Positions 13,657 through 47,554 of a stretch of 64,000 nucleotides of DNA are shown piece after piece. Each line of letters begins with the position of its first letter. Positions within the stretch are counted from its first letter, which is position 1. The notes under the pieces were generated by a model. It had not been told where the DNA came from. It worked only from the letters and a program-made list of their open reading frames with translations, and searched no databases. The position numbers and the translations under genes were made by a program. The DNA lies in the NCBI GenBank assembly GCA_965208635.1, contig OZ242349.1, positions 588,272 to 652,271 of the forward strand. Direction: 5' to 3'. This DNA is from Candidatus Poribacteria bacterium (GTDB lineage Bacteria; Poribacteria; WGA-4E; WGA-3G).

Positions 13657-14784
13657 CTATTGAGGCGACCATGTGCGAAGCCCTTGAAGATCAAAACGGA
13701 AAGGAATCACTCGCGCACCAACCCCTTCCAATGCGTTTCTTGTGGATTTAACACGATCTGGATTACAGTGAAACAGTAGACATCCACCACCACCCGCACC
13801 ACACGCTTTTCCACCGCTACACCCATTTGCTTTCGCAATGTTGAACAACTCATCAATACGTCCGGTGTTTATTGAAGGATGTAACTGTTTTTGGAAACGC
13901 CAGTTCTCATCAAGCAGTTGACCGAAGTCGCAGAGATTGCGAGTCTGAAACATCTGTTTCATCTCATTGGCAATCCGACGAAGTGCTTTCAGGGCATCAT
14001 GCGTCCCTCGATTTCCTGCTTGATATGCGTCAACGACATTCCGAAGAATATCGCCTGAAAAATGCGATTCCCCAGTGTAAACAAGTAGCAAAGAGCTGTG
14101 AAGTTCTTCAAGGCTTTCCTGAGTCAGTTGAAGGGAGGTCGCCTCTACCGATTCGCCTTGACATCGCAAGAAATTTATCCCACCGAGTAGGCTGGCGTAG
14201 TGATCCTGTTTCCCACACGGAATTCCTGTTTCCTGTTCAATGACGGCGGCACTGTCAACAATTTGGTGTCGCAGCAATCTCTTTTCCGTGAAGATCGAGA
14301 GCAAACTCGCAAGAGCGATTCCCAGGGCCCCGGATGCCCCCAGACCACTTCCCTTTGGAACATCACTCCACGTCACAAGATGACAGCCTCTATCAGGACG
14401 CAAACGAGATAGAACCGCTTGCGGTAGATTCAATCCGTGCAGCGATGCCGAAACCCCTACCGGATGAAAGAACTCTTTGAGATCCACGGCGTAGAGACTG
14501 ACACACGAGTCAGGCACGGGAGTGAGACAAACATAAACGTGTAAATCAATCGCAGCGTTGACCACTCCCCCTTCATTCTCCCGCGCGAACGGAATCAGGT
14601 CTGTCCATCCGCCAGCAAGGTCGATGCGCGTTGGTGCGCGCGCATAAAGCGGGACACGTTGGGATAGAGCGGTCATTGCGCTCTTGTGTTCAGCAGTTGG
14701 AGGTTTCCATTGATTTCCCTGAGCATCTTGTATGTTATGAAGCAAAGTTGAACGCATCTCGTCTGAGGCTCCTGTAGATAACAT
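13657..14784 (-). CDS. GHMP-family sugar kinase (galacto-/fuco-/heptose-kinase-like)
   Basis: N-terminal motif RAPTRIDLAGGWTD, a GHMP ATP-binding motif PKGSGLGASGALGIALA, and a C-terminal GGKACGAGGGGCLLF. The track ORF begins at TTG 14820 and overlaps the ABM gene. ATG 14784 or ATG 14757 (AGGAG upstream) are more likely starts. Confidence 0.75.
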   Translation of the reverse strand: MLSTGASDEMRSTLLHNIQDAQGNQWKPPTAEHKSAMTALSQRVPLYARAPTRIDLAGGWTDLIPFARENEGGVVNAAIDLHVYVCLTPVPDSCVSLYAVDLKEFFHPVGVSASLHGLNLPQAVLSRLRPDRGCHLVTWSDVPKGSGLGASGALGIALASLLSIFTEKRLLRHQIVDSAAVIEQETGIPCGKQDHYASLLGGINFLRCQGESVEATSLQLTQESLEELHSSLLLVYTGESHFSGDILRNVVDAYQAGNRGTHDALKALRRIANEMKQMFQTRNLCDFGQLLDENWRFQKQLHPSINTGRIDELFNIAKANGCSGGKACGAGGGGCLLFHCNPDRVKSTRNALEGVGARVIPFRFDLQGLRTWSPQ

Positions 14785-14798
14785 AATACATCCGATGC

Positions 14799-15107
14799 TT
14801 AGACGTCTAAAACCGTGCAATTCCAGAGAAATTCAATCGAGGCGTATTCTCCAACTTTTTGCATCAGTGCCGTGTGTGTCTCACGCCATAGTTTCGCCGT
14901 GCTTTGCAGATGGACCTCTCTATTTTCCCAGAGTTCTGAAATACAATAACCGGCTCTATCTTGGTAGGTATCCAACAGTTCCACCTCCAAGCATCCGGGG
15001 GCGTTTCGTAGAACAGGCAGCCACTGTGTCTGGATAAATTTCTTCAAATCCTTCTTTTTCTTTTTCTCCCGCAGTGTGAGAGTATAAAAGATTCTTGCTT
15101 TCGCCAC
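14799..15107 (-). CDS. ABM (antibiotic-biosynthesis-monooxygenase-like) domain protein
   Basis: 102 aa. The ferredoxin-like pattern FIQTQWLPVLRNAPGCLEVELL..ISELWENREVHLQS resembles ActVA-Orf6/ABM family proteins. Confidence 0.5.
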   Translation of the reverse strand: MAKARIFYTLTLREKKKKKDLKKFIQTQWLPVLRNAPGCLEVELLDTYQDRAGYCISELWENREVHLQSTAKLWRETHTALMQKVGEYASIEFLWNCTVLDV

Positions 15108-15198: not shown

Positions 15199-16332
15199 CT
15201 AAAAAAACGTAAAGAACGGTCCTCGGCATAAAAGTGTTAAAATAACACCCAAACAGATCACAGGCGCGAACCGCAAAGAGTGCTGAATCCGGATTGTGTT
15301 ATCAAACACCTCAAACTCGCCATCTGCTGCCAATTGTTTCAATTCCGCTACCTTCTCTTTTGAGACACCGCCCGGTAATGTCCCAAGAATAATATTCGAG
15401 TTTAACACATTCGGGAGCGCAAAACCTTCCTTGCTATAAGTTATTTCTCCGTCGTCCCCTTCAGTTTTAACAATCTGTTCAGCAGGCACCATTCCCTCTT
15501 TCAAATCAGAGATGTCTACCTCGCGATCTAATACCATACTGTCGAGATTCTCAATGAAATGCTTCCCAAAGAAGAATACAGCAAGATATAGAAGGTATAT
15601 CTTCAAGAGCGGGGTGTAAGCTTCCGACCAGGCACTCAGTGTCCAAGGAGTTGTGATTATCATCAACTCAATTAGCACTACACAGACAACATAGTTACGA
15701 ATCCTCTCGAGACCGAATTTCTTTACATAGTAACTGAGGGTGAGATACAGAGAAAATATAATCAAGAGCTGATGCCACAGTCCGAGTTCAATCCCTAACC
15801 AACGCAGCGAGAGCATAACAAACTGTCGCAACCCGAGTAGAAAAATGAGGCTGAATACCCTCTCGAAAATCTGTTTACGGAAGTCTTCTTGTCGGAAGAT
15901 TGACATAAACGCCTGCGATTTCTGTTGGACATCTGTTTTCAGGCAGAGGTACGTAACAAGGATCATGCAATACGGCACGAAAATGTTGATAATGAGGGTT
16001 GTAGGTGTGTATTGCGCGTATGCAGCCGCCTCCGAAAACAGTCCCGATGGCATCAGCAGCGACGCTCCCCAAACAAGTTTGGCATCTCCTGCGGCGAAAA
16101 TACCAAACCAATAGAGTGCCAGAACAATTAAAAAGCCGCCAACAACCGTAAAGATACTGTTTAAGAGGGCACTACTCCCTGACAAAACATCAATAACTTG
16201 ACTGAGAATGCCAGCGTAGATGAGCCCGTAGCTGCAGAAATTCTTGATTTTTCTTTCTCGCAGATCTGTATAGGCAGCATAGCAGCAGAAAAGCAGAAGA
16301 AGACTAATGAACAAATTCTGGTAACTGAGCAT
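15199..16332 (-). CDS. polytopic membrane protein with N-terminal A24 (TadV/CpaA-type prepilin peptidase) domain and C-terminal soluble domain
   Basis: AAYTDLRERKIKNF (first catalytic Asp motif of Flp-type prepilin peptidases) and FAAGDAKLVWGASLL (second Asp, the GDxKL motif). Further TM helices and a C-terminal domain of about 110 aa follow. Confidence 0.65.
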   Translation of the reverse strand: MLSYQNLFISLLLLFCCYAAYTDLRERKIKNFCSYGLIYAGILSQVIDVLSGSSALLNSIFTVVGGFLIVLALYWFGIFAAGDAKLVWGASLLMPSGLFSEAAAYAQYTPTTLIINIFVPYCMILVTYLCLKTDVQQKSQAFMSIFRQEDFRKQIFERVFSLIFLLGLRQFVMLSLRWLGIELGLWHQLLIIFSLYLTLSYYVKKFGLERIRNYVVCVVLIELMIITTPWTLSAWSEAYTPLLKIYLLYLAVFFFGKHFIENLDSMVLDREVDISDLKEGMVPAEQIVKTEGDDGEITYSKEGFALPNVLNSNIILGTLPGGVSKEKVAELKQLAADGEFEVFDNTIRIQHSLRFAPVICLGVILTLLCRGPFFTFF

Positions 16333-16343
16333 TTTTCAATTCC

Positions 16344-17450
16344 TTAAGGTTGGTTCTCGTGTTCCATTTTCAACGCACCCCAATGTGTGGAGAGTTTCCC
16401 GACCGCCTCAACTGCACGAAAGCCCATCCCGAATACCATTACACTGGTAAAATGTTCCCTGTTTTTTCCGCTGCCACCAAAGACATAGATTTTACCGTTG
16501 ACCACCGCTGCTCCAAAGGGTAGAATAGGCATTGGCAGTGGCGGAATGTCACGCCATTCGTCTGTCTCTGGGTTATAGGTATCAACAGTTGCCAGATCTT
16601 GAGGAACTCTGTTTTGCCAAATGAAACCACCAATCAGATAGATCACATCATCAAGAACAACCGTTGAGAATGAGAGCCTCAGGTTTGGCATCTCATTCTT
16701 TTTTTGCCAACGGTTGATTTTTGGATCATATTCCTCAATGACCTTTAAAAAGGGACCTCCAGGACCCACTTGCGGCCACCCACGTCCCCCGATCGCATAA
16801 ATGTGATTGTTGACAACGCCCACACCAAACCTATCACGTTTCGTCGGCATCTTTGCCCGCTTCACCCACGTATCGGTGGTAGGGTCATAGGCTTCCACGA
16901 GATCAATGCGCCACGGAGCCCCAGGTTTCTGATCCCTTGGGTGGACATACCCGCCAATGGCATAGATTTTGCCAGCAACCACACCCACACCGAACTGTTT
17001 ACGAGGAATCGACATGCCCTGTTTCCTGACCCACGTATCGGTTTGTGGATCGTACATTTCAACAACGTCCAGATTTTTGAGATTCACAATGAATCTGTCT
17101 ATTCCACTATAACCCCCGATGACGTAGATTTTATTATCAACAACTGCTGTTGCAGGCACTGCGCGGGAGGTTGGCATATCCGCAACTCTCCGCCATGTGC
17201 TGGTTTGCGGATCGTACACCTCAACAGTTGACAGTCCAAAGGGACCATTCTCGTTTTCAAAGAGGGTGCCGCCGATGAGATAAATCTTATCACCGACCAC
17301 AGCAGTCGAGAAATCCTTTCTATGTGTTGGAAGTTTAGATATAACCTCCCATCTTTCTGCGGCAATGTTTTCTATGCTGACAAGAAATAGAATGATAACA
17401 ACCAAACCAGCAACAATCCATCGTAGATGCCGAAGTGTTTTGAACATCAT
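16344..17450 (-). CDS. Kelch-repeat beta-propeller protein, N-terminal membrane anchor
   Basis: Six units of KIY(L/A/V)IGG with W/Y-containing blades, after an N-terminal TM segment WIVAGLVVIILFLV. It is a paralog of 22904-24034. Confidence 0.8.
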   Translation of the reverse strand: MMFKTLRHLRWIVAGLVVIILFLVSIENIAAERWEVISKLPTHRKDFSTAVVGDKIYLIGGTLFENENGPFGLSTVEVYDPQTSTWRRVADMPTSRAVPATAVVDNKIYVIGGYSGIDRFIVNLKNLDVVEMYDPQTDTWVRKQGMSIPRKQFGVGVVAGKIYAIGGYVHPRDQKPGAPWRIDLVEAYDPTTDTWVKRAKMPTKRDRFGVGVVNNHIYAIGGRGWPQVGPGGPFLKVIEEYDPKINRWQKKNEMPNLRLSFSTVVLDDVIYLIGGFIWQNRVPQDLATVDTYNPETDEWRDIPPLPMPILPFGAAVVNGKIYVFGGSGKNREHFTSVMVFGMGFRAVEAVGKLSTHWGALKMEHENQP

Positions 17451-17517: not shown

Positions 17518-19161
17518 TCAAACGAGATTTTCTAAGATTTTTTCGGCACGTTCCGGCTCTTTACAGATGAACTCAAGCACAGTTTTTACCGCCATCGGTG
17601 TGTATTCCTCCAAAAGGGTCATCGCAATCGCTTGCTCCATATCAACCGATGTCGGAACCCTTGAGAGCATGAATGCTTCGGCCTCAATTTCACCGCATAC
17701 CGGGTTGTAATGTTTCCGAAAAAGCAGACGATGTTTCGTGGATTTAGATTGGGATACCTTACGATTTTGAAGATCTCCAAGTAGACTAAGGATTCGTTGG
17801 ATAGTCTCTTCCCATGTGTAAGTTGAAACAGCCTCTAATCCTTTCTGCCCTAAATTCGTTTGTTCATCGGGGGTTTCAAACAGCGATCTGAGTTCCTGCG
17901 ATATGGATTCAACTGGCACATCGACTGGATCGAAAAAAGTTGGTGGAATCTGAATAAACCGACACGCACCTGAAATCTCTTCAGGTGCGGCATATCCCCA
18001 GATAACCGTTGGAATGCCACATGCAACTATCTCCAGCAGGAGTAGCGGAGATGACCCAAGAATCGTCGGAAACACCAATGCGTCTAAAGCATTAAAGATA
18101 AATGGACTTGCCTCCTTGTCCTGCAGAGACGCAATATTAAAAAAGTTAACACACCCATCCCCCGTGAAATTGTCCTCCAGGGTGGAATGGATGACCAACC
18201 AATTGAACTCTGGATTGGCAAATCGCAGTTTTCGCAAGAAGTGAAACGTTTCGTGCGGAGGCAGTCCTGACACGACCCCTACCAACGGTTTTTGCGAAAT
18301 CGCTGCATTCCCGAGCGCCTGAGACAATTGGTGCTTACACTTCGTTTTATCCATCGGTCTGAAAATAGATGTATCAACACCATAAGGAATATGATGAAAG
18401 ACACTCAGATCGGGAACGAAATTTGAGAAAAAGGTCTGCGTCCAAGAGGCATCGCATGCAAAGGTATCAAAATTTCGCAACGCCGCACATCTCTCAAGCA
18501 CGGTGTTACGTGCTTCATGACGCATCAAAGTCTCGTTGGACAGGCGGAGTATAACGGGATGCCTGTTAAATTTTAGAAAAACCTGCTCCCCTACAGTCAG
18601 CGGAGCTAAAGCGAGAATACCATCACAGTCCTGCGGAATAAACTTTGCTGGCGAAAACGACCGATCGCTTCTGAAGAAAACCGGTTGAACCCCTTCAGTA
18701 CGTAAACCGTCTTTAATTTCCTGACGGTTGTTGTCCGTCTCAGATAAGGGTAGATAAAGGTCGGCATGATTTGCCAGCGTCGTTAGCAGATGGTGAGTCG
18801 CCGCATTCAGTAGGAAAGAGGCGGTCTTTCTGTTTTCCAAAACACCCGCTGTCAGAAAAATTTTCGGTCGTTCACCACATGGAGAAGGTTCAATTTCAGG
18901 TTGATCTGGCGAAAATAGAATCCCGATTTCCGAAAGTTTAGAAAGAAAAGCGAGTGCCTCAAAAACCACAGAACGGGAACCGTGTTTGTCAGCGAGCGTG
19001 TCAATGATGACATCCGTTTCCGAAACCCTACAAGCATTTAGGATGTCGCAAACAACTTCATTCACCGGGACAACAACACCCGCATCAAGATCGGCAACGA
19101 ACTGCTCGCCATCACGTTTGAAATGATGAAGGTTATGCAAATTGCAAGGAAATTCGATCAT
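17518..19161 (-). CDS. PqqD-like (RRE) domain fused to GT-B glycosyltransferase-like domain (EX7E motif incomplete)
   Basis: The N-terminal 85 aa (HHFKRDGEQFVADLDAGVVVPVNEVVCDILNAC..ETDVIIDTLADKHG..VVFEALAFLSKLSEIGILF) follow the PqqD/RRE pattern. The C-terminus LVFPTILGSSPLLLLEIVACGIPTVIWG resembles the GT4 core but lacks the first Glu of EX7E. Confidence 0.65.
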   Translation of the reverse strand: MIEFPCNLHNLHHFKRDGEQFVADLDAGVVVPVNEVVCDILNACRVSETDVIIDTLADKHGSRSVVFEALAFLSKLSEIGILFSPDQPEIEPSPCGERPKIFLTAGVLENRKTASFLLNAATHHLLTTLANHADLYLPLSETDNNRQEIKDGLRTEGVQPVFFRSDRSFSPAKFIPQDCDGILALAPLTVGEQVFLKFNRHPVILRLSNETLMRHEARNTVLERCAALRNFDTFACDASWTQTFFSNFVPDLSVFHHIPYGVDTSIFRPMDKTKCKHQLSQALGNAAISQKPLVGVVSGLPPHETFHFLRKLRFANPEFNWLVIHSTLEDNFTGDGCVNFFNIASLQDKEASPFIFNALDALVFPTILGSSPLLLLEIVACGIPTVIWGYAAPEEISGACRFIQIPPTFFDPVDVPVESISQELRSLFETPDEQTNLGQKGLEAVSTYTWEETIQRILSLLGDLQNRKVSQSKSTKHRLLFRKHYNPVCGEIEAEAFMLSRVPTSVDMEQAIAMTLLEEYTPMAVKTVLEFICKEPERAEKILENLV

Positions 19162-19174
19162 CGTTTTACTTTCT

Positions 19175-20872
19175 CTATCCGTTTACGGCTTCCTGAAAAC
19201 CAAAAATTTTTTCGAGAATCGTTTCAGTTCTCTCCTGACCATATAAATGATGTAACACGGCTTCAACTTCATGTATGCCGTGTTTTCTCAGGAGTGCCAA
19301 TGACAAGCCCTCCTCAATGGATTGTGCATAGCGGTCTTTCATCAGGGGTCTTTCCTTTTCGCGAGTGATATTGCTCAATATTGCTTGGCGTTCAATCTGT
19401 CTTTGCCGATTGTTAAGATAAGGGACGAAAGAGATAGCGAAGTGCCGTTTATATCGGTCCTCTAACGCTTGGATTTGTTTCAGTCTTCTGAACAACGCAA
19501 TGAGATTCTGTGCGGTTTTATCCCATGTAAAGGTCAGTGCTCTCTCCCGCGCCTTTTGTCCCAATGCCAATCGTGCTTTCTCATCGATGAGGAGGCTATT
19601 GACGGCATCCGCCATTGCACTCGGTGAAACCGTCCCAGCGAAACTACCAATTTCATTATCATACGCTTGTGCGGGCACAACAAGTCCCGCATTGCCGACA
19701 ACCTCAGGGAGTCCATCAAGGTTCGGCACAACTGGCGGTATCCCACAAGCCATCGTTTCTAAGAGGGCAAGCCCAAATGTTTCTTCACCGACCATTGAGG
19801 GGAAACAGTAAACATCAAAAGCATTTAAAAATCGAGCAAGTTCGTCCCTGGGTTGCTGTGGTGCACAAATCAGATTCGGTGGCAGTTGCTGATGGGCATA
19901 AATGTTCAGCGTCGGAGCGGTAAGAAGGAAACAGACGTGTGGGAGGCATCTCGCGATTTTTATGTAAATTCCTGCTCCTTTTTCAGGTTGAAATCTTGAG
20001 AAGAAACCGACCACCGGTGAAGTAGCGATTTCAGGTTTGTTCAGCATCTTCGCAACTTCAGTTTTCGCCTGCTGTTTGCCAAAGGGATGAAATTTGTTAG
20101 GATCAACTCCCAATGGTATGGCCTGAAAAACGTCCTTGTTATAGACGAATCGACCGTACAGATCGCTCACTGAGTTCGTTGGCACCAAAAAAGCATCAAA
20201 AGGACGCATCGCCGCGTACCAAAGCAATCCTGCATTAATGACATCGCCATTGTGTCCTCTTGCGGAATAGATCGGAACAACAAATGGGGCATCAATATAA
20301 CGTAAAAGAGGAAGGAACTGCGTGTCTTGATGACTTCCTAACAAGACTGCGTCATAATTGCCTTGGATTAACTTTAGAAACGCAGATTTATCGTTTCTCT
20401 GGAATCTGATACCTTGGACATTCTCATTGAACTTTTCGTCGCGTTCACCTATCACGTCAAGAAAAGCATGTGCCTCCAGTGCTTTGACGAGATTGTGATG
20501 TGCCACCGAAACCCCACCTGTTGCTTTTGTAATGTCGGCTGCATAGGGACCGTTCTGTAGGACAAGGATCTTCAATTGACTTGTAGTCTCTGTTCCTTGT
20601 GAGGTGGTGTTCCTTTCGAGGTTTGAAAAGAGAACCCCACGCTGTTCCATTGCTGATAGTGTATTTAATGCCTCAATGACTAAATCGGTGTCGTATTTTT
20701 TCCCAAGCCGTTCTATGATTTCCTCACTTGAAAAAGATGGGCAGAGGTCCAGGATCTCCCAAGTGATGTTATCGATGCCCAATACAAGACATTGGCTAAG
20801 ATCCGCGACATACAGACGGTCACCCTGCTGGAATTTATGTAGATGTGTGGTAGATTTCGGACATACGAACAT
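19175..20872 (-). CDS. PqqD-like (RRE) domain fused to GT4-family (GT-B) glycosyltransferase
   Basis: N-terminus LHKFQQGDRLYVADLSQCLVLGIDNITWEILDLC..SSEEIIERLGKKYDTDLVIEALNTLSAMEQRGVLF (PqqD/RRE pattern). C-terminus YCFPSMVGEETFGLALLETMACGIPPVVPNLDGLPEVVG (canonical GT4 EX7E and Gly-rich motif). Confidence 0.75.
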   Translation of the reverse strand: MFVCPKSTTHLHKFQQGDRLYVADLSQCLVLGIDNITWEILDLCPSFSSEEIIERLGKKYDTDLVIEALNTLSAMEQRGVLFSNLERNTTSQGTETTSQLKILVLQNGPYAADITKATGGVSVAHHNLVKALEAHAFLDVIGERDEKFNENVQGIRFQRNDKSAFLKLIQGNYDAVLLGSHQDTQFLPLLRYIDAPFVVPIYSARGHNGDVINAGLLWYAAMRPFDAFLVPTNSVSDLYGRFVYNKDVFQAIPLGVDPNKFHPFGKQQAKTEVAKMLNKPEIATSPVVGFFSRFQPEKGAGIYIKIARCLPHVCFLLTAPTLNIYAHQQLPPNLICAPQQPRDELARFLNAFDVYCFPSMVGEETFGLALLETMACGIPPVVPNLDGLPEVVGNAGLVVPAQAYDNEIGSFAGTVSPSAMADAVNSLLIDEKARLALGQKARERALTFTWDKTAQNLIALFRRLKQIQALEDRYKRHFAISFVPYLNNRQRQIERQAILSNITREKERPLMKDRYAQSIEEGLSLALLRKHGIHEVEAVLHHLYGQERTETILEKIFGFQEAVNG

Positions 20873-28023: not shown

Positions 28024-30057
28024 ATGCAGAAATTGGCGATTGAAGGTCAAACGCATACAAATTCAATAGGAATGCAATTCGTTAGAATTGAACCTGGGAC
28101 TTTCACAATGGGTTCAAAGAACGCTGCGCTATCAGATGCGTTGACAGCCGGAAAAGCATACCTCCGCGACGGTGATTGGGATGAACATCCCGTCCATCAA
28201 GTCACCCTCACCACGCCGTTCTATATCGGCATTTTTCAGGTGACGAATGCACAGTATGAGATGTATGATCCCACACACCACGGGTTGAAGAGTCTTCAGA
28301 ACACCGGTTTCTCTAAGGAAGATGACGAAGCGGTTGTGTTTGTAGACTGGCACGATGCGACGCGATTCTGTGAATGGCTTTCCGAAAAGGAAGGACTTCC
28401 CTATCGACTGCCAACCGAAGCAGAATGGGAATATGTGTGCCGTGCGGGGACAACAACCCATTTTCACACCGGCGATACACTACCACCTGAGTTCCACAAA
28501 AACGTTGGAGAGAGTTGGTACCCGGATACGGGGCGGAGCCGCAGTGCCGAAGAAATCGTGTCTTTGCACGTCGGACAAACGCCATCCAACGCGTGGGGTG
28601 TATATGACATGCACGGAAACGTCGAGGAGTGGTGCCAAGATTGGTATGGGAGCTACGCACCGGACCCACAGGTTGATCCAGTGGGTAGGGAAGAGGGTTT
28701 GTATCGTGTTACACGGGGTGGCAGTCATTCGACCTTACTCTGTTATCTACGCTCAGCCAATCGGATGGGAGCAGTGCCAGAAGATAAACACTGGTACATC
28801 GGATTCCGTGTCGTCTGTGGTGAGATGCCGCAGACCTCTCCAACACCGGCACCGAAGGTGGGATTATGGGGACGTGATGTTAAACAGGAAAATAGGAGTG
28901 TCCCCGCGCCAGAATCCCCCTATTTTGCGGAACCGCTCACCTACGTCAAAATTCCAGAAGGTTCAAACGGACCGCTTTTTTCGGCGCACAATCACGTTCC
29001 GGCGATCGTGGAATGCCTGAACGGTGATATGTTCACGGCGTGGTATTCCTGCGTGACAGAGCGTGGACGCGAATTGACAGTCGCCGCGAGCCGACTCCGC
29101 TTTGGTGAAACCGAATGGGATCCCGCTGAACCCTTTTGGGGTCCACCGGATCGGAACAATCACGCCACCTCCCTTTGGCGAAACGAGAATGGAAGAATTT
29201 ATCACTTCAATGGACTCTCGGCTGCTGCAACATGGGGTCCCTTAGCGTTGATCCTCCGTTACTCGGATGATAACGGTGCGACTTGGTCGAAACCGCGCTT
29301 CATATCACCGGAACACCGACTCCGACACATGCCGATCGCCTCTGTTTTCCGAAGACAGGACGGCTCTATCCTCCTCGCTTGCGATGCAGTAACTGGTGGA
29401 AACGGTGGCACAGCGATATGGCTCAGCGACGATGACGGTGAAACTTGGTACGATCCGGGAGCGGGACAACCGATTCCAGAATTCGCCGATGGCAAACAGG
29501 GCGGATGGATCGCTGGCATCCACGCCGCTGTCGTTGAACTCACAGATGGCAGATTGATGGCTTACGGCAGAGGCGATACAATCAACGAACGGATGCCGAA
29601 AAGTGTCTCTGAAGATGGTGGTAGGACATGGCAGTATAGTGCGAGTCCGTTCCCAGTAGTTTCTGGCGGACAGCGATGTGTTCTGCTACGACTTCAGGAG
29701 GGACCGATTTTTCTTGCTTCCTTCACCGGAGAACGGAAGCCCCCTACATCTATGCCGATCGTTGATGCTTCTGGCAATGAACGCTTCGTCACCGGACTCT
29801 TTGGTGCGTTGTCTTACGACGACGGCGAAACATGGGAATGTATGCGGCTGATTACAGATGATGGAGAAGATCGAGAGATCGAGACGATGGATGGACGCCC
29901 CTTTACGATGGGGTTAAACAGTGCCGAACTCGGTGGGTACCTCGCGGTTTGCCAAGGACAGAATGGAATCATTCACCTCATCAGTAGCCGTCAACATTAT
30001 CGCTTTAACCTTGCTTGGCTCAAAACACTACCGCCCGCGGGGTCTCACGCCCTTTAG
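28024..30057 (+). CDS. FGE-sulfatase (SUMF1/formylglycine-generating-enzyme family) domain fused to BNR/sialidase-like beta-propeller
   Basis: The N-terminal 270 aa carry FGE-family blocks (RLPTEAEWEYVCRAG, NAWGVYDMHGNVEEWCQDWY, RVTRGGSH). The C-terminal 400 aa carry four BNR motifs (SDDNGATWS, SDDDGETWY, SEDGGRTWQ, YDDGETWE). Confidence 0.8.
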   Translation: MQKLAIEGQTHTNSIGMQFVRIEPGTFTMGSKNAALSDALTAGKAYLRDGDWDEHPVHQVTLTTPFYIGIFQVTNAQYEMYDPTHHGLKSLQNTGFSKEDDEAVVFVDWHDATRFCEWLSEKEGLPYRLPTEAEWEYVCRAGTTTHFHTGDTLPPEFHKNVGESWYPDTGRSRSAEEIVSLHVGQTPSNAWGVYDMHGNVEEWCQDWYGSYAPDPQVDPVGREEGLYRVTRGGSHSTLLCYLRSANRMGAVPEDKHWYIGFRVVCGEMPQTSPTPAPKVGLWGRDVKQENRSVPAPESPYFAEPLTYVKIPEGSNGPLFSAHNHVPAIVECLNGDMFTAWYSCVTERGRELTVAASRLRFGETEWDPAEPFWGPPDRNNHATSLWRNENGRIYHFNGLSAAATWGPLALILRYSDDNGATWSKPRFISPEHRLRHMPIASVFRRQDGSILLACDAVTGGNGGTAIWLSDDDGETWYDPGAGQPIPEFADGKQGGWIAGIHAAVVELTDGRLMAYGRGDTINERMPKSVSEDGGRTWQYSASPFPVVSGGQRCVLLRLQEGPIFLASFTGERKPPTSMPIVDASGNERFVTGLFGALSYDDGETWECMRLITDDGEDREIETMDGRPFTMGLNSAELGGYLAVCQGQNGIIHLISSRQHYRFNLAWLKTLPPAGSHAL

Positions 30058-40437: not shown

Positions 40438-43400
40438 TTATTTCCTTATCAACATTTTTCGCGTCGCAGTAAAATCGTCCGCTGTGAGCGTGTAGAAATA
40501 GACACCACTTGCGACAAGTTCACCCAAGGCGTTTCTACCGTCCCAATAGGCAGCACGGGAACGACTCTGATACAGACCCGCAGGTTGATGTCCGAGTGCT
40601 AACCGCCGAACCATTTGCCCATTTACGGCGTAGATAGTGATGGTAACCTCCGCGGGTTTTGACAACTGATAGGGTATCCACGTCTCTGGATTGAACGGGT
40701 TCGGGAAGTTTACCAAAAGCGCGTCCTCTCTGTGGGCGGTGACAGTTATTTGTGCCGTGAGTGCAGGTCCGTTATAGTTCGCAATAGCACCCGCACCGAC
40801 AGTGAACGTGAGGACTCTATCCGTGTCAAAGTCGCCGTCGAATTCAAGGGCAATCGTGAGTTCGGTATCATTCTTTCGTCTGGGTTGGTGCCACGGGATT
40901 CTGACCCCCGCAATACCAGAGACCGTCACGGCATCCTTAATGTCAAAGATAGACCGGGCGTACTTAGCCCCCTTCAGCGTCAATGTGACAACGCTTCCAT
41001 CCAACGTCGCTTCTGTCAATGCCCCCTCCGTCGTGGCAGTCACCGATTCCTCGCCCCCACTGACAGGCACTTCAACGGTGAATGCAGGACCGTTATAGTT
41101 CGCAATAGCACCCGCACCGACAGTGAAGATGAGGACGGCATCGGCATCAAAGTCGCCGTTGAATTTAAGTTCAATCGTAAGTTCTGTATCGCTCTTTCTG
41201 TCCGGTTCGTGCCAAGGTATCGTTACGTCCCTAATACCAGAGACCGTCACGGCACCCCTGATTGCGAAGATAGAACGTTCGTATTTAGCCCCCTTCAGTG
41301 TGAGGGTGACAACGCTTCCATGCAATGTCGCCTCCGTTAATGGCGACTTCGTCGTGGCTATTACTGATTCCTGTCCCCCACTGACAGGCACTTCGAGAGT
41401 GAACGCAGGACCGTCATATCCCAAGAGTGCCTCCGCCCCGACGGTGAAGGTGAGGACAGCATCGCCATCAAAGTCGCCGTTGAATTTAAGTTCAATCGTA
41501 AGTTCTGTATCGCTCTTTCTGTCCGGTTCGTGCCACGGGATTGATACGCCGTTGATACCAGAGACCTTCACAGCATTTCTGATCGTGAAACTGGATCGTT
41601 CAAAAGTTCGTCCACTTAGCGTCAGTGTAACCACGCTTCCGTTGAGCGTTGCTTCCGTCAAGGGGGACTTCGTTGAGGCAACTATTGATTCCTTATCTCC
41701 AGTGACAGGTAGCTGTGCGATCAAAGCAGGTCCGTCGTAGCCCGTTATCGCATCCGCCCCGACAGTGAAGGTGAGTGTCGCATCCGTGTCAAAATTGCCT
41801 TTGAATGTCAGTTCAACCGTCAATTCCGTATCGCTGACGCGGTCTAAATCGAACCAGTGAAAAGTAACGCCCTCAACCCCAGATACGGTCACAGCACCTC
41901 TGATGTCAAAGTTAGAGCGTTCGTAAGTCGCACGGTTGAGCGTGAGGGTGACGATGCTCCCATTGAGTGTAGTTTCCGTCAAGGGTGCTTCCGTTGATGC
42001 CTCCAACGATTCCTGTCCTCCAGTAACAAGCACTTGTGTGATCAACCCGGGACCATCGTATTCCACTATGGCATCCGCTCCTACTGTAAAAGTGAGCGTG
42101 GCATCCTTGTCAAGGTTTCCATCGAATTCAAGTTCAACAGTAATTTCTGTGTCCTTCAGACGCTCTACACCTGACTTCTTAACAGTTACACCCGCAATAC
42201 CAGAGACCGTCACAGCATTTTTGAGGACAGGGAGAGATTGCGCGTAAGTCCCGTTGTTGAGCGTCAACAGGATGATGCCCCCATCCAGGGTCGCCTCTGT
42301 AAAGGGTTGTGGGGTTAATAGGGTGATTGTTGGTCTTCCCTTGACGACAGCAGTAACAGGTATCTCTGCGATGCGTGCGGGACCGTTATAGGCAACAATT
42401 GCGCCTGCCCCAATCCTGAAAGTGAGCGTGGCATCCGTGTCAAAATTTGTACCGTCAAATGTCAATTTAACGGTCACTTGCGTATCACTGAGACGTGTTA
42501 CATCCGGCTGAGGAAACGTAACGCCGGCGATGCCGGATACTTGCAACGCACGCCTGATGTCAGCAACGGATTTCGCATACACACCACTGGACAGTGTCAG
42601 TGTGACGACTCTCCCATTTAGGGTTGTCTCCGTCAATGGTCGTGGTGCAAAGGCAGTGATTATCGGACGCCTCTCTACAACGGCGATGACAGGCAATTGC
42701 GCGACGAGCGCGGCACCCTTGTATCCCATCACGGCATCCGCCCCGACCTTGAAGGTGAGCCTCGCATTGGCATCAAAGTCCGTCCCATCGAATATCAATT
42801 TGATAGTCACCTGGGTATCACTGATGCGTTCTGCATCAAACCTGCTAACAGTCACACCAGTAATGCCCGATACCGTCACGTTATTTCCAACAGTGTGCTG
42901 AGCCTCGTAGATCCTGCCGCTTAACGTCAGTGTGACGATACTCCCATTTAGGGTTGCCTCTGTTAGCGGCACTACGGACGAGGCGTTCACCGACTCAGTA
43001 ACCGCAGTGACAGGCACCGTCGCGGTGAGTGCGGGTCCATCGTAATTCGCGATTGCATCCGCTTGGACTGTGAAGGTGAGGGTGGCATCGGTGTCAAGGT
43101 CAGTCCCATCAAAGGTCAGTCCAACTGTCAACATCGTAGCATTGACACGTTTCACATCGGCAGGCTTGACAGTTACACCGGCAATACCGGCTACCCTTAC
43201 AGGATCGTTGAGCCAGTTTTCATAGATCCGGTTTCGTAACGCCAGTGTCACTATGCTTCCATTCAGTGTCGTCTCCGTTAAAGGAGACCGAGAAGTCAAC
43301 GTTATCGTCGGGCTTTTCTGATCGTCCACGTCGGTGACTTCAATAGTGACAGTAATGGCGTCGGTAAGATTGCCATCAGAAACAGTGACTTTTACGGTAT

Positions 43401-45027
43401 AGGTGCGTTTGGTTTCGTAGTCAAGGGCGGCAAAGGTTCTCAATTGACCAGTTGTAGGCTCAATATCAAACGATGCCGCATCAGGACCGCCAAGGGTGTA
43501 GGTTAGAGAATCGTTGTCCGCATCCGTCGCCGCTACCGGCTCGCGGATGTTCATTCCTCTCGGTGTATTCTCCGCCACTGTACGGGTGGTGTGACTACCA
43601 TCTATGAACTCCGGTGCGTCGTTTGTCGGCACTTCAACGACGATATCAACAACAATGATAATCACCGTGATTTTAGCTATCAAACTGCCATCGGAGACAG
43701 TGACTGTTACCCTATAGGAGGCTTTGGTTTCATGGTGGAGGGCTGTCTTGGTTTTCAACTGCCCAGAGGTGCTATCAATGTCAAACGATGCCGCATCAAT
43801 GCCACTTAACTGATAGATTAACGGCTCATTGTTGGCATCAGTAGCCACTACTGGATCACCGATGCTTACATTTGCGCCTGTCTTCTCCGCCACCGTGCGG
43901 GTGGTAGCGGAGCCTTCGGTGAACACGGGTGCTTTGTTGATGGACCATCCCATATCTTCGAGCATACCCAATGCAATAGGGCCAGGATCGTGAATGGCTT
44001 CCTGTCTATCAAGATATGGAGTCATTAACGAATTAACATCTCCAGGGGGAAATATTGTCTCATCTAAATGGGCGTACGCTGACCCTGTATCCCAGGTACT
44101 GGGCGCGTGGAGTTGGGGACGTCCGCCCCCGTTTGCGGCAACGCCTTTTGCGCCGCTCCAGACGAGGTTGTTACTGGTAAACTGTTCCAGAAGACTCGTG
44201 GATGGATCATCAAACTCCATGATAGCCGTTCCAGACCCATTGACGACAAAGAAATCATAAATATGAGGCAATGCATCAGGCTTTCCACTCCTTAGCTTAC
44301 CTTGGTTATCGGAGGGAGAAAAAGTCCAAGTTGAAATATTTTCTTCCCTGGCGGCACTAAAAAAACCGAGACCGTGAGCAATCTCATGAATCACGGTGCT
44401 AACGAAGTCCATTTTACCGGCGGGTGTGTTGCCATCTGTTTCAAAATACCAATTGACATCTTCGTGACTGTTGAATTCCGTTATGATATCTGGCTCTCCA
44501 TCTGCAAGGTCTCTGCCAGCCTGCTGATCAGCAAGTGCATCAACGAACCACAAATTTAATGCACGGGACGGTTTCCAAGCAACTGGCTGAGCCGCTCCCA
44601 AAATAATCTCTCCGTCCTCATACCCCCCGAAGTCGGTAAAAATTGCGTCAATCCAGATTGGCACAGGCGATCGGATCAGCGAATTCCAAATATCAACCGC
44701 ATATTGGAACGCTTCCCTCGCTTCGTCCGTAAAACCGGTGTAGGTCACTCTAAATTGGGGCTGTTCCGTTCCAAAATAGTTATCGTGTCGGGAGAATTGC
44801 TGCAGTGGTGGTGCCGGGACACTTGTATTCGAATTTTCATTGGTTCCATATAAAATGATCATGCCGTCCAATGCTTTGTCTTGGCTCGTTGGATTTACCC
44901 GTGACAGCACTTCAGATGTCTCTGAGCGTTGCCGCAGTACTGCGTCTCGGCTTATGGCGTGAGGGGTCAATCCAAGTAGAATGGATATGAAAAAGAAAAC
45001 TGTCAGTAATACTTTAGCAAATTCCAT
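40438..45027 (-). CDS. giant secreted protein: zinc-metalloprotease-like (HExxH) domain + cadherin-like domains + about 10 tandem Ig-like repeats + T9SS type-A C-terminal sorting domain
   Basis: Signal peptide, then VIHEIAHGLGF (HExxH). Cadherin-like units (VVATDANNEPLIYQLSGIDAASFDIDSTSGQL). Repeats of 95 aa (PLTE(A/T)TLNGS(I/V)VTLTL..VSGI.GVT). C-terminal FPNPFNPETWIPYQL..YWDGRN..GVYFYTLTA..TRKMLIRK. Confidence 0.8.
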   Translation of the reverse strand: MEFAKVLLTVFFFISILLGLTPHAISRDAVLRQRSETSEVLSRVNPTSQDKALDGMIILYGTNENSNTSVPAPPLQQFSRHDNYFGTEQPQFRVTYTGFTDEAREAFQYAVDIWNSLIRSPVPIWIDAIFTDFGGYEDGEIILGAAQPVAWKPSRALNLWFVDALADQQAGRDLADGEPDIITEFNSHEDVNWYFETDGNTPAGKMDFVSTVIHEIAHGLGFFSAAREENISTWTFSPSDNQGKLRSGKPDALPHIYDFFVVNGSGTAIMEFDDPSTSLLEQFTSNNLVWSGAKGVAANGGGRPQLHAPSTWDTGSAYAHLDETIFPPGDVNSLMTPYLDRQEAIHDPGPIALGMLEDMGWSINKAPVFTEGSATTRTVAEKTGANVSIGDPVVATDANNEPLIYQLSGIDAASFDIDSTSGQLKTKTALHHETKASYRVTVTVSDGSLIAKITVIIIVVDIVVEVPTNDAPEFIDGSHTTRTVAENTPRGMNIREPVAATDADNDSLTYTLGGPDAASFDIEPTTGQLRTFAALDYETKRTYTVKVTVSDGNLTDAITVTIEVTDVDDQKSPTITLTSRSPLTETTLNGSIVTLALRNRIYENWLNDPVRVAGIAGVTVKPADVKRVNATMLTVGLTFDGTDLDTDATLTFTVQADAIANYDGPALTATVPVTAVTESVNASSVVPLTEATLNGSIVTLTLSGRIYEAQHTVGNNVTVSGITGVTVSRFDAERISDTQVTIKLIFDGTDFDANARLTFKVGADAVMGYKGAALVAQLPVIAVVERRPIITAFAPRPLTETTLNGRVVTLTLSSGVYAKSVADIRRALQVSGIAGVTFPQPDVTRLSDTQVTVKLTFDGTNFDTDATLTFRIGAGAIVAYNGPARIAEIPVTAVVKGRPTITLLTPQPFTEATLDGGIILLTLNNGTYAQSLPVLKNAVTVSGIAGVTVKKSGVERLKDTEITVELEFDGNLDKDATLTFTVGADAIVEYDGPGLITQVLVTGGQESLEASTEAPLTETTLNGSIVTLTLNRATYERSNFDIRGAVTVSGVEGVTFHWFDLDRVSDTELTVELTFKGNFDTDATLTFTVGADAITGYDGPALIAQLPVTGDKESIVASTKSPLTEATLNGSVVTLTLSGRTFERSSFTIRNAVKVSGINGVSIPWHEPDRKSDTELTIELKFNGDFDGDAVLTFTVGAEALLGYDGPAFTLEVPVSGGQESVIATTKSPLTEATLHGSVVTLTLKGAKYERSIFAIRGAVTVSGIRDVTIPWHEPDRKSDTELTIELKFNGDFDADAVLIFTVGAGAIANYNGPAFTVEVPVSGGEESVTATTEGALTEATLDGSVVTLTLKGAKYARSIFDIKDAVTVSGIAGVRIPWHQPRRKNDTELTIALEFDGDFDTDRVLTFTVGAGAIANYNGPALTAQITVTAHREDALLVNFPNPFNPETWIPYQLSKPAEVTITIYAVNGQMVRRLALGHQPAGLYQSRSRAAYWDGRNALGELVASGVYFYTLTADDFTATRKMLIRK

Positions 45028-45178
45028 AATGACCGTACTTCTTTCGTTGGTGTGATATTACTCGCGCTCGGGACGGATTCCTGTGATATTTGAGATCCTA
45101 GTCACGAATGCCAATGAACACAAAGTGTTTGACAAAAACCACAACCGCACCGCAGCAAATAGGATTTATGAAACACCC

Positions 45179-46129
45179 TCAATATAATACTTCTGTTCCA
45201 TTCGCCTCGATTGTAGGGATAATCAGTTTTTTGGAATCGTCGCTCAGCGGATTGTCTGTAAGGTCTAACTTCTGCAAGTTTTTTAACCTCTCAAGGGGAC
45301 TTACATCTACAATAGCGTTGTTGCTTAGATACAACCCTCGTAAGTTTTTTAGTCCCTGAAGGGGACTTACGTCTACAATAGCGTTGTTGTCAAGGTGTAG
45401 CTGGTTCAAGATCCGTAATCCTGTGAGCGGACTTACATCCACAAGTTCGTTATCGTCAAGCCACAGTTTTTGCAAGATTTTTAATTCCTCAAGGGGACTT
45501 ACGTCCACCAGAGAAGTGTCCCTAAGGTTCAGCCTTCGCAAGTTCTTTAATTCTGCAAGGGCACTTATATCCACAAGAGCGTTGCCTCGAAGGACTAATA
45601 CTTGCAAGTTTTCTAATCCTGTGAGGGGGCTTACATCCACAAGAGCGTTGTAGTGAAGTCGCAGGGTTTGCAAGTTTTCTAATCCCGTAAGTGGGCTTAT
45701 GTCTACAAGCTCGTTGTTACCGAGGTTCAGATCTCTTAAGTTTTTTAGGTTCTTAAGGGGAGTTACATCTACAATATTGTTGGCATTAAGGTTTAGGACA
45801 GCGAGGTTTTCTGCGTATTCAAGTCCAGTCAAATCGAAAATGGGTGTATTCTTGACTGGAATAAAAAGAAGCCACCCGTCCTCTTCAAATTCTGCCTCCA
45901 ATTCAGTGAGTTTGAGCATATCCTCTGCAGTGATTGGTGCGCCGATGTTAAGGTCAAGGATCCGCCTAATTTCATGGTGCAGCTCAGTATCAAGGATCAG
46001 ATTGTCTTCAACAGGGTCAAAGGGGTCATTAGGGTCAAAGGGGTTATTCCCTTCCTCGCACCCAAACATTGAAAAAGAGAGTATGCCTATTAAAACGATA
46101 CTGATCACTGGAATACTTCTTGTTGTCAC
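45179..46129 (-). CDS. leucine-rich-repeat lipoprotein (internalin-like 22-aa LRRs)
   Basis: Signal with Cys (ILSFSMFGC), then about 9 repeats of LxxLxxLxLxxNx(L/I)VD(V/I)SPLxxL. Confidence 0.8.
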   Translation of the reverse strand: MTTRSIPVISIVLIGILSFSMFGCEEGNNPFDPNDPFDPVEDNLILDTELHHEIRRILDLNIGAPITAEDMLKLTELEAEFEEDGWLLFIPVKNTPIFDLTGLEYAENLAVLNLNANNIVDVTPLKNLKNLRDLNLGNNELVDISPLTGLENLQTLRLHYNALVDVSPLTGLENLQVLVLRGNALVDISALAELKNLRRLNLRDTSLVDVSPLEELKILQKLWLDDNELVDVSPLTGLRILNQLHLDNNAIVDVSPLQGLKNLRGLYLSNNAIVDVSPLERLKNLQKLDLTDNPLSDDSKKLIIPTIEANGTEVLY

Positions 46130-46277
46130 AAAAAACTCCTTTTATTAACATCAATACCTTCGCGAAAAAATAGGGGCTTCTTTAAATATCAACCAAATCC
46201 CTATGAACTCAACGATGAATCTATCAGTGTTCAGTGGGTGGGAAATGTTAAAGCGAAGGTATTGTTATGAAACACAC

Positions 46278-47246
46278 TCAATACGATACTCCTGTCCCAT
46301 TCGCTCTGATTATAGGGATACTCAGTTTTTTGGAATCATCACTCAGTGGATTGTCTGTAAGGTTCAGCTCCCTCAATTTTTTTAATTCTGCAAGGGGACT
46401 TACGTCTACAATAGCGTTGTTGCTAAGATGCAACCATCGCAAATTTTTTAATGCTTCTAAGGGGCTTATGTCTATAAGCTCGTTATTGTCAAGGTGGAGC
46501 TGGTGCAAGTTTTCTAATCCTGCGAGAGGACTTATATCCACAATCTCGTTTTTTTCAAGCCACAGTATTTTCAAGTTTTTTAATCCTACAAGGGGACTTA
46601 TGTCCACAAGGGCAGTGCCGGTAAGGCTTAGTCGGTTCAAGTTTTCTAATCCTGCAAGGGGACTTATGTCCACAAAAGCGTTGCCGTTAAGGGCTAGCAC
46701 TTGCAAGTTTTTTAATCCCGTAAGCGCGCTTACGTCTACAAGAGAGTTGTAGTGAAGCAGTAGTGTTTCTAAGTTTTTTAGTCCCGTAAGCGGGTTTATG
46801 CCTATAATATCATTGTTGCTGAGGTCCAGCGTTTTCAAGTTTTTTAATCCTGCAAGGGGACTCACATCCACAATATCGTTGCCACTCAGGTTCAGTACTA
46901 CAAGGTTTTTTGCGTATTCAAGTCCGGTCAAATCGGAAATGGGTGTACCTTTAGTAAAAAATTCTGCCTCCAATTCAGTGAGTTTGAGCATACTCTCTGC
47001 TGTAATCGGTGTGCCATAGGGGAGGTTAATTGGGTGGGTTCTTAGTTCCCACTCAATTTCAGAGCGGAGCGCAGCATCAGAGATAAGGTTGGCTTCAACA
47101 GGACCAACTTCAGAGCGGAGCACAGCATCAGAGATAAGGTTGGCTTCAACGGAATCAACGGGGTCATCTGCCTCCGCGCACCCGAACATTGAAAAAGAGA
47201 ACACGCATATGAAAACGATGCTAATCGCTGGAATACCTCTTATCAT
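46278..47246 (-). CDS. leucine-rich-repeat lipoprotein, paralog of 45179-46129
   Basis: The same architecture (VFSFSMFGC, LRR x about 9, C-terminal NLTDNPLSDDSKKL). The N-terminus has a duplicated 16-aa segment (ANLISDAVLRSEVGPV / ANLISDAALRSEIEWE). Confidence 0.8.
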   Translation of the reverse strand: MIRGIPAISIVFICVFSFSMFGCAEADDPVDSVEANLISDAVLRSEVGPVEANLISDAALRSEIEWELRTHPINLPYGTPITAESMLKLTELEAEFFTKGTPISDLTGLEYAKNLVVLNLSGNDIVDVSPLAGLKNLKTLDLSNNDIIGINPLTGLKNLETLLLHYNSLVDVSALTGLKNLQVLALNGNAFVDISPLAGLENLNRLSLTGTALVDISPLVGLKNLKILWLEKNEIVDISPLAGLENLHQLHLDNNELIDISPLEALKNLRWLHLSNNAIVDVSPLAELKKLRELNLTDNPLSDDSKKLSIPIIRANGTGVSY

Positions 47247-47439
47247 AAAAAATTCCCCTTGTTAACGTGCGTTCGACATAAGAGAAAGTTGGGTATTATA
47301 ACCCAAGTTGATAGTTGTGTAGCATAATCTTTTAGATTGTGCACAAACGTGCGCAAACTGAAAGTTTACGCTACAAAAATCAGCGAATCCGCCACGATTT
47401 GCGATGCAAACGGGGCACATAAGCCTAAAATCTTATAAG

Positions 47440-47517: not shown

Positions 47518-47554
47518 ACAAAGGGGTTTGCATAAGTTCTAACCCTTTCCTGTG

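Follow-up and report, generated by a model that had tools for sequence, protein, structure and literature searches.

The closest documented precedent for a glycosyltransferase made of an active and an inactive subunit is GtfA/GtfB (Gtf1/Gtf2), the O-linked N-acetylglucosamine (O-GlcNAc) transferase of Gram-positive serine-rich-repeat (SRR) adhesins. In that system catalysis is carried out by GtfA, and GtfB, a protein of the GT-B fold, has no enzymatic activity and takes part in substrate binding (bioRxiv 10.1101/219105). The same report describes Asp1 as lacking, "like GtfB", two positively charged residues of the active site, and as having Gln in place of an essential Glu. Here we analyze a tandem pair of genes from a Candidatus Poribacteria bacterium, located in a 64-kb stretch of contig OZ242349.1 (the window, in what follows, is this whole stretch of 64,000 nucleotides). 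Each gene encodes an N-terminal RiPP recognition element (RRE; RiPP, peptide synthesized on the ribosome and modified after translation) fused to a domain of the GT-B fold that belongs to, or derives from, glycosyltransferase family 4 (GT4), and we propose that the two proteins would act together on a small precursor peptide encoded in the same operon. The upstream protein is called GT-A and the downstream protein GT-B, and "GT-B fold" is kept for the structural class; coordinates are collected in Table 1.

The likeness to GtfA/GtfB lies in a cytoplasmic enzyme of the GT-B fold that is accompanied by an adjacent, apparently inactive paralogue. Both GT-A and GT-B are cytoplasmic-type proteins, and the substrate of GtfA/GtfB is a protein that is subsequently exported. 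The two positively charged residues and the Glu missing from GT-B resemble the losses reported for the inactive GT-B-fold proteins of that pathway. Unlike the present pair, however, GtfA/GtfB have neither an RRE nor a leader peptide, and they contain an inserted domain of extended beta-sheet, to which Pfam gave no match in GT-A or GT-B. Their substrate is a huge Ser-rich adhesin that leaves the cell through the accessory Sec system, whereas the candidate substrate here is a peptide of about 100 residues; no SRR adhesin and no SecA2/Y2/Asp genes are present in the window. Beyond the GT-B fold, no specific sequence relation between GtfA/GtfB and the pair could be detected.

The RRE fusion has its counterpart in CteB, the radical SAM/SPASM enzyme of SCIFF thioether formation (5WGG), whose N-terminal domain is an RRE that binds the CteA leader by extending an antiparallel sheet (PMC6231123). 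The N-terminal domains of our pair are homologous to this RRE, and the same logic would be expected, in that the leader is bound and the core is presented to the fused catalytic domain. In contrast to CteB, the catalytic domain here is of the GT4 and not of the radical SAM/SPASM type, and there are two RRE paralogues, one of which has lost its catalytic residues. Glycosylation of RiPPs is relatively rare, most of the characterized RiPP glycosyltransferases come from glycocin pathways, and the glycocin enzymes are predicted GT2 members (PMC11912497). Enzymes such as SunS and ThuS likewise glycosylate a ribosomal precursor in the cytoplasm before export, and give disulfide-containing secreted products, but they are single GT2 enzymes, whereas the present pair combines GT4, an RRE fusion and a pseudoenzyme partner. 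Pfam and fold searches with the pair returned GT4 and GT-B-fold matches only, and no GT2 catalytic domain. The proposal of the original prediction, which was made from the letters of the window, that these enzymes belong to a class distinct from the GT2 enzymes of glycocins therefore holds.

Several ingredients of the system have been encountered before. The cacaoidin cluster encodes a GT4 protein, Cao24, which is not fused to an RRE and was proposed to be a tailoring enzyme (PMC8068269). Fusions between RREs and glycosyltransferases in putative new RiPP clusters were flagged by RRE-Finder in 2020, without family detail (PMC7470986), and again in a structure-based RRE survey of 2025, which cites PF00535 (PMC12710340). 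The present pair matches PF00534, which is another Pfam family, the sightings of both surveys are uncharacterized, and neither survey describes a paired pseudoenzyme, an A24 peptidase or the present precursor family. The term GT4 does not appear in the main text of the 2025 survey (PMC12710340), and in one file of its supplementary material there is no occurrence of PF00534, PF13692, PF00535 or Glycos_transf_1. We found neither an RRE-GT4 enzyme nor a paired RRE pseudo-glycosyltransferase nor this precursor in combination with an A24 peptidase described in the literature. Each ingredient is known, and the combination is new. To our knowledge, an obligate pseudoenzyme partner would have no earlier case in RiPP-type biosynthesis.

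Architecture of the pair and the active site of GT-A

The reading frames of GT-A and GT-B both start with ATG, and in the window a TAG stop and a 13-nucleotide spacer lie between them. BLASTP aligned the two proteins end to end (26% identity, E 2e-42), and they are therefore paralogues over all their domains, in agreement with the tandem of paralogous fusions that had been predicted. The motifs quoted in that prediction, EETFGLALLETMACGIPPVV in GT-A and SSPLLLLEIVACGIPTVI in GT-B, were recovered and turned out to be traits of the two families rather than accidents of the window. One part of the prediction needed correction, namely that both proteins end with the GT-B fold. This fold occupies approximately residues 100-465, and it is followed by an extension of about 85-100 residues, missed in that prediction, that is conserved between the A and B families. 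That both proteins consist of an RRE, a GT-B fold and a C-terminal extension we regard as almost certain.

Three lines of evidence support the assignment of the N-terminal domains. First, a profile built from 17 such domains matched residues 5-81 of CteB (5WGG) at E 2.6e-14, and CteB was the one solved structure that was convincingly matched; a profile of the B family alone also matched the CteB RRE (E 7.8e-8). Second, residues 9-100 of both proteins align with the first ~94 positions of the NCBIfam models for ScfB-related and SCIFF radical SAM/SPASM maturases, the N-terminal part of NF040492 matching GT-A at E 2.6e-7 and the ScfB-related/SCIFF maturase models matching the N-terminus of GT-B at E 1.2e-4. 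Third, the AlphaFold2 model of GT-A (mean predicted local distance difference test score, pLDDT, 73.7; mostly 70-88 in the RRE block) places strands at residues 11-16, 19-24 and 29-33 and helices at 35-43, 49-57 and 62-77. This corresponds to a beta3-alpha3 winged helix and not to an unrelated fold. The original prediction had described the domains as PqqD-like RREs. The RRE part of that description stands, but membership of the Pfam PqqD family (PF05402) was rejected for both domains since their scores fell under the gathering threshold. The call consequently relies on the predicted fold and the relationship to the CteB RRE, not on Pfam PqqD, and on these grounds we accept both N-terminal domains as RRE-type winged helices.

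The central region of GT-A matched Pfam Glycos_transf_1 (PF00534) with 70.6 bits against a cut-off of 26.4. Comparison with GT4 enzymes of known structure placed GT-A closest to MshA, GlgM, PimA and BshA, which together with PimB' were its best Protein Data Bank (PDB) sequence matches and which, together with SPS, were matched by the GT-A model at a Foldseek probability of 1.00. The GG loop (G119/G120), R293, K298, E364 and E372 are invariant in 13/13 GT-A orthologues. Likewise, the block EETFGLA[LV]LE.MACG was kept in all 112 GT-A sequences in which it could be located by a regular expression, among the 120 matches listed. The EX7E motif of GT-A, predicted to be canonical, is thus intact, and all GT4 hallmarks are kept across the orthologues. 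On its sequence and model we consider GT-A a bona fide GT4 enzyme of the GT-B fold, and retaining transfer from a nucleoside diphosphate (NDP) sugar is its predicted activity. GT-A also matches the Pfam model "GT4-conflict" (29.1 bits, cut-off 26), but the match is confined to the generic C-terminal GT4 region, and an assignment as a defense protein on that basis was rejected.

In the C-terminal extension the last three helices are modeled with pLDDT 83-90, and no match to Pfam, the PDB or Foldseek was found. The full-length model hinted at a second RRE in this region (beta-beta-(beta)-alpha-alpha-alpha at residues 479-564), which we rejected as unsupported. Aligned with the N-terminal RRE it gave an hhalign probability of 2%, it had no PDB sequence match, its strands vanished when the domain was modeled on its own (pLDDT 65), and Foldseek returned nothing below E 0.5, with CteB at rank 31 (E 2.1). 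One might guess that the extension is an interface between GT-A and GT-B.

A precursor-like gene beside the pair

The window was compared with related loci (among them L001, L002, L003, L004, L082 and L083); eight loci were examined. Upstream of GT-A and GT-B, in the same operon, lies a small open reading frame (ORF) that is preceded by the ribosome-binding site aaaggag. Homologues accompany the glycosyltransferases in L001, L003 (two copies), L004, L082 (two copies) and L083, and no locus with enough flanking sequence lacks the small ORF. Of the two L003 copies, the more divergent one, which had not been used for building, was recovered by a hidden Markov model of the leader (E 1.4e-14). A database search placed the family in 203 clusters of 80-106 residues, annotated only as hypothetical proteins of Poribacteria.

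Conservation was assessed in an alignment of 120 of these 203 clusters. Residues 1-49 are almost invariant and comprise an n-region, MQTHVVQLTKQRLSDFFVKE[ED]GHVAHKN, followed by a hydrophobic segment, ALVAGTVATGAI.A..L.AP. After the hydrophobic segment comes an AxA-like site, and the ~45 residues beyond it form a hypervariable stretch in which only C63-G64, C72, C79-C80-S81, Y91-x-C93 and often C100 are conserved. At position 81, which directly follows the two Cys, 116/120 clusters have Ser/Thr (108 with Ser, 8 with Thr). A RiPP precursor would be expected to join a near-invariant leader to a hypervariable core, as is seen here, and the hydrophobic segment with its AxA site indicates export. 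The arrangement of a charged leader, a hydrophobic segment and a co-encoded A24 peptidase is that of A24 substrates, although at the presumed junction HKN/ALVAG the invariant N28 stands in place of the canonical Gly at -1. From this pattern and its location we judge the small ORF to be probably the substrate of the pair, which lends support to the earlier suggestion that these are peptide-directed glycosyltransferases.

The precursor also leads to the HXS anti-phage system, in which the effector HxsA is matured by the radical SAM enzymes HxsB and HxsC with HxsD. HxsA is reportedly matured in the cytoplasm, processed at its N-terminus and exported to the periplasm (PMC13128918), and the overall logic that we propose here is the same. 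The N-terminus of the precursor resembles HxsA3 (NF038309) weakly (E 2.5e-5 and 9e-4; scores of 19-24 bits, under the cut-off of 65). Its core, as read from the sequence, has no His-Xaa-Ser repeats. In contrast to HXS, the window has no HxsB/HxsC radical SAM or HxsD genes, and the proposed maturase is a glycosyltransferase pair. In L083 (648-2729 and 3308-3511), a distant relative of the locus, however, HxsD-like and HxsB-like radical SAM/SPASM genes (both below cut-off, the HxsB-like one with 316 bits against 370) lie on one side of the precursor gene, and the A24 peptidase and the glycosyltransferase pair lie on the other. This co-occurrence links the pair to maturation systems of the HXS type. 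The L083 precursor has the same leader and a core without Cys (TATHSQYTAYHRDASF). An RRE common to the glycosyltransferases and the HxsB-like enzyme of L083 is unsupported (hhalign probability 0.2%).

It could be argued that the pair is not peptide-directed at all, and that the winged helix serves dimerization or regulation, the acceptor is a lipid, a polysaccharide or a larger protein, and the small ORF encodes a secreted protein that is linked to the pair but unrelated to it. Most GT4 enzymes, including the top matches of GT-A, use lipid, sugar or small-molecule acceptors, and the Kelch, LamG or transglutaminase-like proteins encoded around the pair vary from locus to locus. The RRE of SuiB, moreover, makes no contact with its leader (PMC6231123). 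We nevertheless consider this explanation unlikely. The N-terminal domain is specifically homologous to a leader-binding RRE, the small ORF is constant while the Kelch, LamG and transglutaminase genes are not, and the precursor joins a near-invariant leader to a hypervariable core. Furthermore, L003 carries two complete GT-A/GT-B pairs on one contig (3-3056 and 10001-13478), each followed by its own divergent precursor gene, which suggests duplication and co-diversification of the enzyme pair and its substrate.

Loss of catalytic elements in GT-B and conservation of the pair

The state of the active site in GT-B was read from an alignment of 13 GT-A and 16 GT-B orthologues. In GT-B the first Glu of the EX7E block is replaced by Ser, with a 2-residue deletion inside the block, the GG loop corresponding to G119/G120 of GT-A has become F/L, and R293 and K298 of SRFQPEKG have become G and E. 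None of the 68 GT-B sequences in which the motif block could be located by a regular expression, among the 120 matches listed, has the first Glu. The second Glu and the following ACGIP are the only survivors of this region in the Poribacteria clade. The absence of the first Glu had been predicted correctly; the loss of the GG loop, the Arg and the Lys had been missed. Pfam PF00534 is sub-threshold for GT-B (18 bits, cut-off 26.4), and the GT-B family profile weakly matches GT4 structures, namely PimB' (2.5e-5), sucrose synthase and GlgM. GT-B is therefore a diverged GT4 protein and not another fold. The prediction of GT-B-type domains in both proteins is thus borne out, for GT-A by Foldseek and for GT-B by its full-length homology to GT-A and these weak GT4 profile matches. 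Of the two options that had been left open, an active/inactive pair is strongly favored by the loss of four hallmarks in GT-B and two different specificities are disfavored, and GT-B is likely to be inactive as a glycosyltransferase.

An exhaustive profile search of 1.84 billion representatives returned 92 proteins at E <= 1e-30, of which ~60 were full length. After these sequences had been added, the alignment separated 31 A-like proteins, with Arg, Lys and EX7E intact, from 42 B-like proteins. The RRE region is kept in every one of them (31/31 and 42/42), and the 2-residue deletion is found in 42/42 B-like sequences; in many distant B-like lineages the second Glu has been lost as well. The best-conserved region of the A clade is the donor-binding GT-C half, with a mean pairwise identity of 0.54 against 0.38 for the RRE. 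In the B clade the GT-C half has fallen to 0.32, slightly below the RRE (0.35) and the C-terminal helices (0.34), which are there the best-kept parts by a narrow margin.

The same split between an active and a degenerate copy is seen in the Poribacteria locus L004, whose GT-A is 38% identical; its first gene has SRVQPEKG and EETFGLTLLE, its second NGFQPQNS and G--TPFSMVLE. In all eight loci an A-like gene is directly followed by a B-like gene (nine pairs, two of them cut by contig ends). The ratio of nonsynonymous to synonymous substitutions (dN/dS) could be used for the pairs L001/L082 and window/L002 only, dS being saturated between the window and most other loci. It was 0.23 for GT-B and 0.16 for GT-A in L001/L082, and 0.19 for GT-B in window/L002. 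Since values of 0.19-0.23 indicate purifying selection, GT-B is not decaying. Taken together, these features fit a catalytic subunit accompanied by an obligate pseudoenzyme partner, GT-B being, as judged from these sequence comparisons, an ancient and maintained paralogue. A restriction of the pair to Poribacteria was considered and is not claimed, because the reference-genome scan that yielded three full-length loci relied on two peptide patterns; the exhaustive search, by comparison, gave ~60 full-length representative clusters.

Could both proteins be active, with different donor or acceptor specificities, GT-B attaching a second sugar or modifying another residue through a non-canonical site? 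GT-B is full length, is under purifying selection and has kept its GT-B scaffold, with the second Glu and the ACGIP block retained in Poribacteria, and GT4 enzymes differ in how far mutational data show the first Glu to be essential. Even so, we find it quite improbable. The GG loop, Arg, Lys and first Glu have all been lost at once, together with the deletion in the catalytic loop; the second Glu has also gone from many B-like lineages; the GT-C half shows no extra conservation in the B clade; Pfam GT1 is sub-threshold for GT-B; and losses of positive charges and a Glu resemble those of inactive GT-B-fold proteins of the GtfB/Asp1 type. Least probable of all is a module that acts chiefly as a leader-binding chaperone or export gatekeeper, holding the precursor for the A24 peptidase or other maturases (such as an HxsB-like radical SAM enzyme) with glycosylation secondary or absent: the RRE and C-terminal helices are indeed kept more faithfully than the catalytic half of GT-B, HXS accessory proteins are needed for the processing and export of HxsA (PMC13128918) and L083 pairs GT-A/GT-B with HxsB/HxsD-like genes, but catalytic residues of GT-A that are invariant in 13 orthologues and kept in 31 lineages, within a protein whose GT-C half is most conserved, are hard to explain without catalysis, and a GHMP kinase with sugar kinases as best matches is linked to the pair in three loci.

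We thus return to the reading in which GT-A and GT-B are the two subunits of one leader-peptide-directed glycosyltransferase module that acts on the precursor. As a joint statement about all of its parts we lean towards it, and we lean only slightly towards a physical complex of the two proteins.

Neighboring genes and the proposed pathway

Across the loci the precursor, GT-A and GT-B are constant, and a cytochrome/DsbA protein and a GHMP kinase recur in closer relatives. The cytochrome/DsbA protein is a fusion of a UshA-like part (match to NCBIfam "UshA-like (seleno)protein" at E 3.6e-64, under the cut-off), a multiheme part of the cytochrome c554 type and a DsbA/GILT-like thioredoxin, and it also stands beside the pair in L001 (as a fragment) and L082. 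It possibly contributes to periplasmic disulfide formation in the Cys-rich core. A heme-linked disulfide oxidoreductase encoded beside Cys-rich peptides is in itself unusual. The A24 peptidase, an aspartyl enzyme of the prepilin/preflagellin type, has the catalytic Asp motifs YTDLRERKIKN and AAGDAKL in the window. It was found in 6/8 loci with the motifs YTDxxxxKIxN and AAGDAKL, and the other two loci have short or crowded flanks. It is an archaeal-type A24 peptidase encoded in a bacterium.

The GHMP kinase, whose NCBIfam matches HddA (E 6e-36) and fucokinase (7e-32) are both below cut-off, is kept in L001 and L082 and possibly supplies the donor sugar; the 660-residue protein encoded next to it could be an unconventional sugar-activating enzyme. 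In other loci the Kelch proteins are exchanged for LamG-like or transglutaminase/Big_5 proteins. The sigma-54 promoter-like element fits the perfect consensus TGGCAC-N5-TTGC and is its single match in the window, where 0.10 would be expected by chance.

Further observations concern other parts of the window. No radical SAM gene is present in its 64 kb, and an assignment of the operon to a defense system was rejected, PADLOC giving zero matches for any operon protein. Very large "eukaryotic-like" proteins (40438-53776 and 57118-60717) carry cadherin, leucine-rich repeat, lamin-tail, dockerin and LVIVD repeats, and all of them end in a FlgD_ig-like domain that may be a shared sorting or anchoring module. 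On the plus strand and divergent from the operon, 28024-30057 encodes a 677-residue protein whose N-terminal domain matches the PvdO, GldK and EgtB families and is followed by a long C-terminal region.

Table 1. Features of the glycosyltransferase operon, with positions numbered from the first letter of the window.
Feature	Position	Strand	Description
GT-A	19175..20872	minus	565 residues; RRE, canonical GT4 (GT-B fold) and C-terminal extension; predicted catalytic subunit
RRE (PqqD-like winged helix) of GT-A	20624..20845	minus	residues ~10-83; CteB homology, AlphaFold2 fold, NCBIfam
GT-B fold (two Rossmann halves) of GT-A	19478..20575	minus	residues ~100-465; alignment, PDB sequence matches, model, Foldseek
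SRFQPEKG of GT-A	19976-19999	minus	R293, K298
EX7E of GT-A	19757-19783	minus	E364/E372
C-terminal extension of GT-A	19178..19477	minus	residues 466-565; conserved between A and B families
GT-B	17518..19161	minus	547 residues; RRE, degenerate GT4-derived GT-B fold and C-terminal extension; predicted non-catalytic partner
RRE of GT-B	18910..19137	minus	residues ~9-84; CteB homology, NCBIfam
Degenerate EX7E block of GT-B (SSPLLLLE)	18031..18054	minus	first Glu replaced, 2-residue deletion, second Glu kept
C-terminal extension of GT-B	17521-17775	minus	counterpart of GT-A extension
Candidate precursor/substrate	24249..24557	minus	102 residues; conserved n-region of ~28 residues, hydrophobic segment, AxA-like site, Cys/His/Asp-rich core with CCS
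Terminator-like hairpin	24089-24105		after precursor gene
Sigma-54 promoter-like element TGGCACGGAACTTGC	24835..24849	minus	~280 nucleotides upstream of precursor gene, downstream of sigma-54 activator gene
Sigma-54-dependent activator	25513..26553	minus	AAA+ and HTH_8, no receiver domain; Pfam Sigma54_activat E 3e-68; NCBIfam
Two Kelch-repeat beta-propeller proteins	22904-24034 and 16344-17450	minus	flank the glycosyltransferase pair
UshA-like/cytochrome c554/DsbA-like fusion	20886..22862	minus	658 residues; directly upstream of GT-A
Peptidase A24, archaeal-type C-terminal domain	15199..16332	minus	Pfam PF01478 and PF06819 (Arc_PepC); candidate leader peptidase
GHMP-family kinase	13657..14820	minus	Pfam GHMP_kinases_N and _C; best matches sugar kinases
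Nucleotidyltransferase-fold protein, 660 residues	11139-13121	minus	directly downstream of GHMP kinase; weak N-terminal Pol-beta nucleotidyltransferase and YgxA-like substrate-binding matches

According to our proposal, the genes would be expressed from the sigma-54 promoter under the neighboring activator. In the cytoplasm, by analogy with CteB, the n-region of the precursor (MQTHVVQLTKQRLSDFFVKEEGHVAHKN...) would be held by the RRE of GT-A, of GT-B or of both, joining the sheet as a further beta-strand. Next, prior to export, GT-A would move a sugar from an NDP-sugar onto the core, the leading candidate for the acceptor being the Ser/Thr after the Cys pair (C79-C80-S81) or a neighboring Cys, and GT-B would serve as a non-catalytic substrate-binding or activating subunit in the manner of GtfB. 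For its insertion or export the modified peptide would use its hydrophobic segment, the A24 aspartyl peptidase and/or signal peptidase (at the AxA site) would cut off the leader, and the cysteines would be oxidized in the periplasm, possibly by the adjacent cytochrome/DsbA fusion.

The proposal should be interpreted with some caution, since several observations weigh against it. Both N-terminal domains scored below the Pfam PqqD (PF05402) cut-off of 23.4 bits (14.1 and 13.3 bits; E 0.06 and 0.11). Since a signal-like hydrophobic segment falls within the conserved part of the precursor, this conservation may partly reflect export and not recognition by an RRE. The cores of L004 and L083 have no CCS motif, and hence a single acceptor residue cannot apply to all loci. 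With the second Glu and ACGIP kept in the Poribacteria proteins, residual nucleotide binding or an unusual activity of GT-B is possible. As to the donor, no GHMP kinase was found in the fetched parts of L004 and L083, and the neighboring nucleotidyltransferase-like protein is, by Pfam, not a classical sugar-1-phosphate nucleotidyltransferase.

In conclusion, we tentatively put forward an undescribed RiPP-like pathway, to which as a whole we give a little less than an even chance. In this pathway a heteromer of an RRE-GT4 enzyme and an RRE pseudo-glycosyltransferase would glycosylate hypervariable, secreted, Cys-rich peptides in a leader-dependent manner. The unusually long leader would combine recognition with an export signal and would be removed by a dedicated archaeal-type A24 peptidase. 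Evolutionary ties would connect the pathway with the radical SAM maturation systems of HXS, and it would be widespread among Poribacteria that live with sponges. If this is true, RRE-fused GT4 enzymes constitute a second, structurally unrelated route to leader-directed peptide glycosylation. Because RRE-leader pairs are transplantable, such a route is potentially programmable. The GtfA/GtfB principle of a catalytic subunit with an inactive, substrate-binding paralogue would then be extended from giant adhesins to small peptides. Finally, in sponge symbionts that are uncultivated, the 203 clusters whose hypervariable, disulfide-rich cores follow one invariant leader suggest a diversifying arsenal of secreted peptides, possibly with a role in antimicrobial action, host interaction or anti-phage defense.

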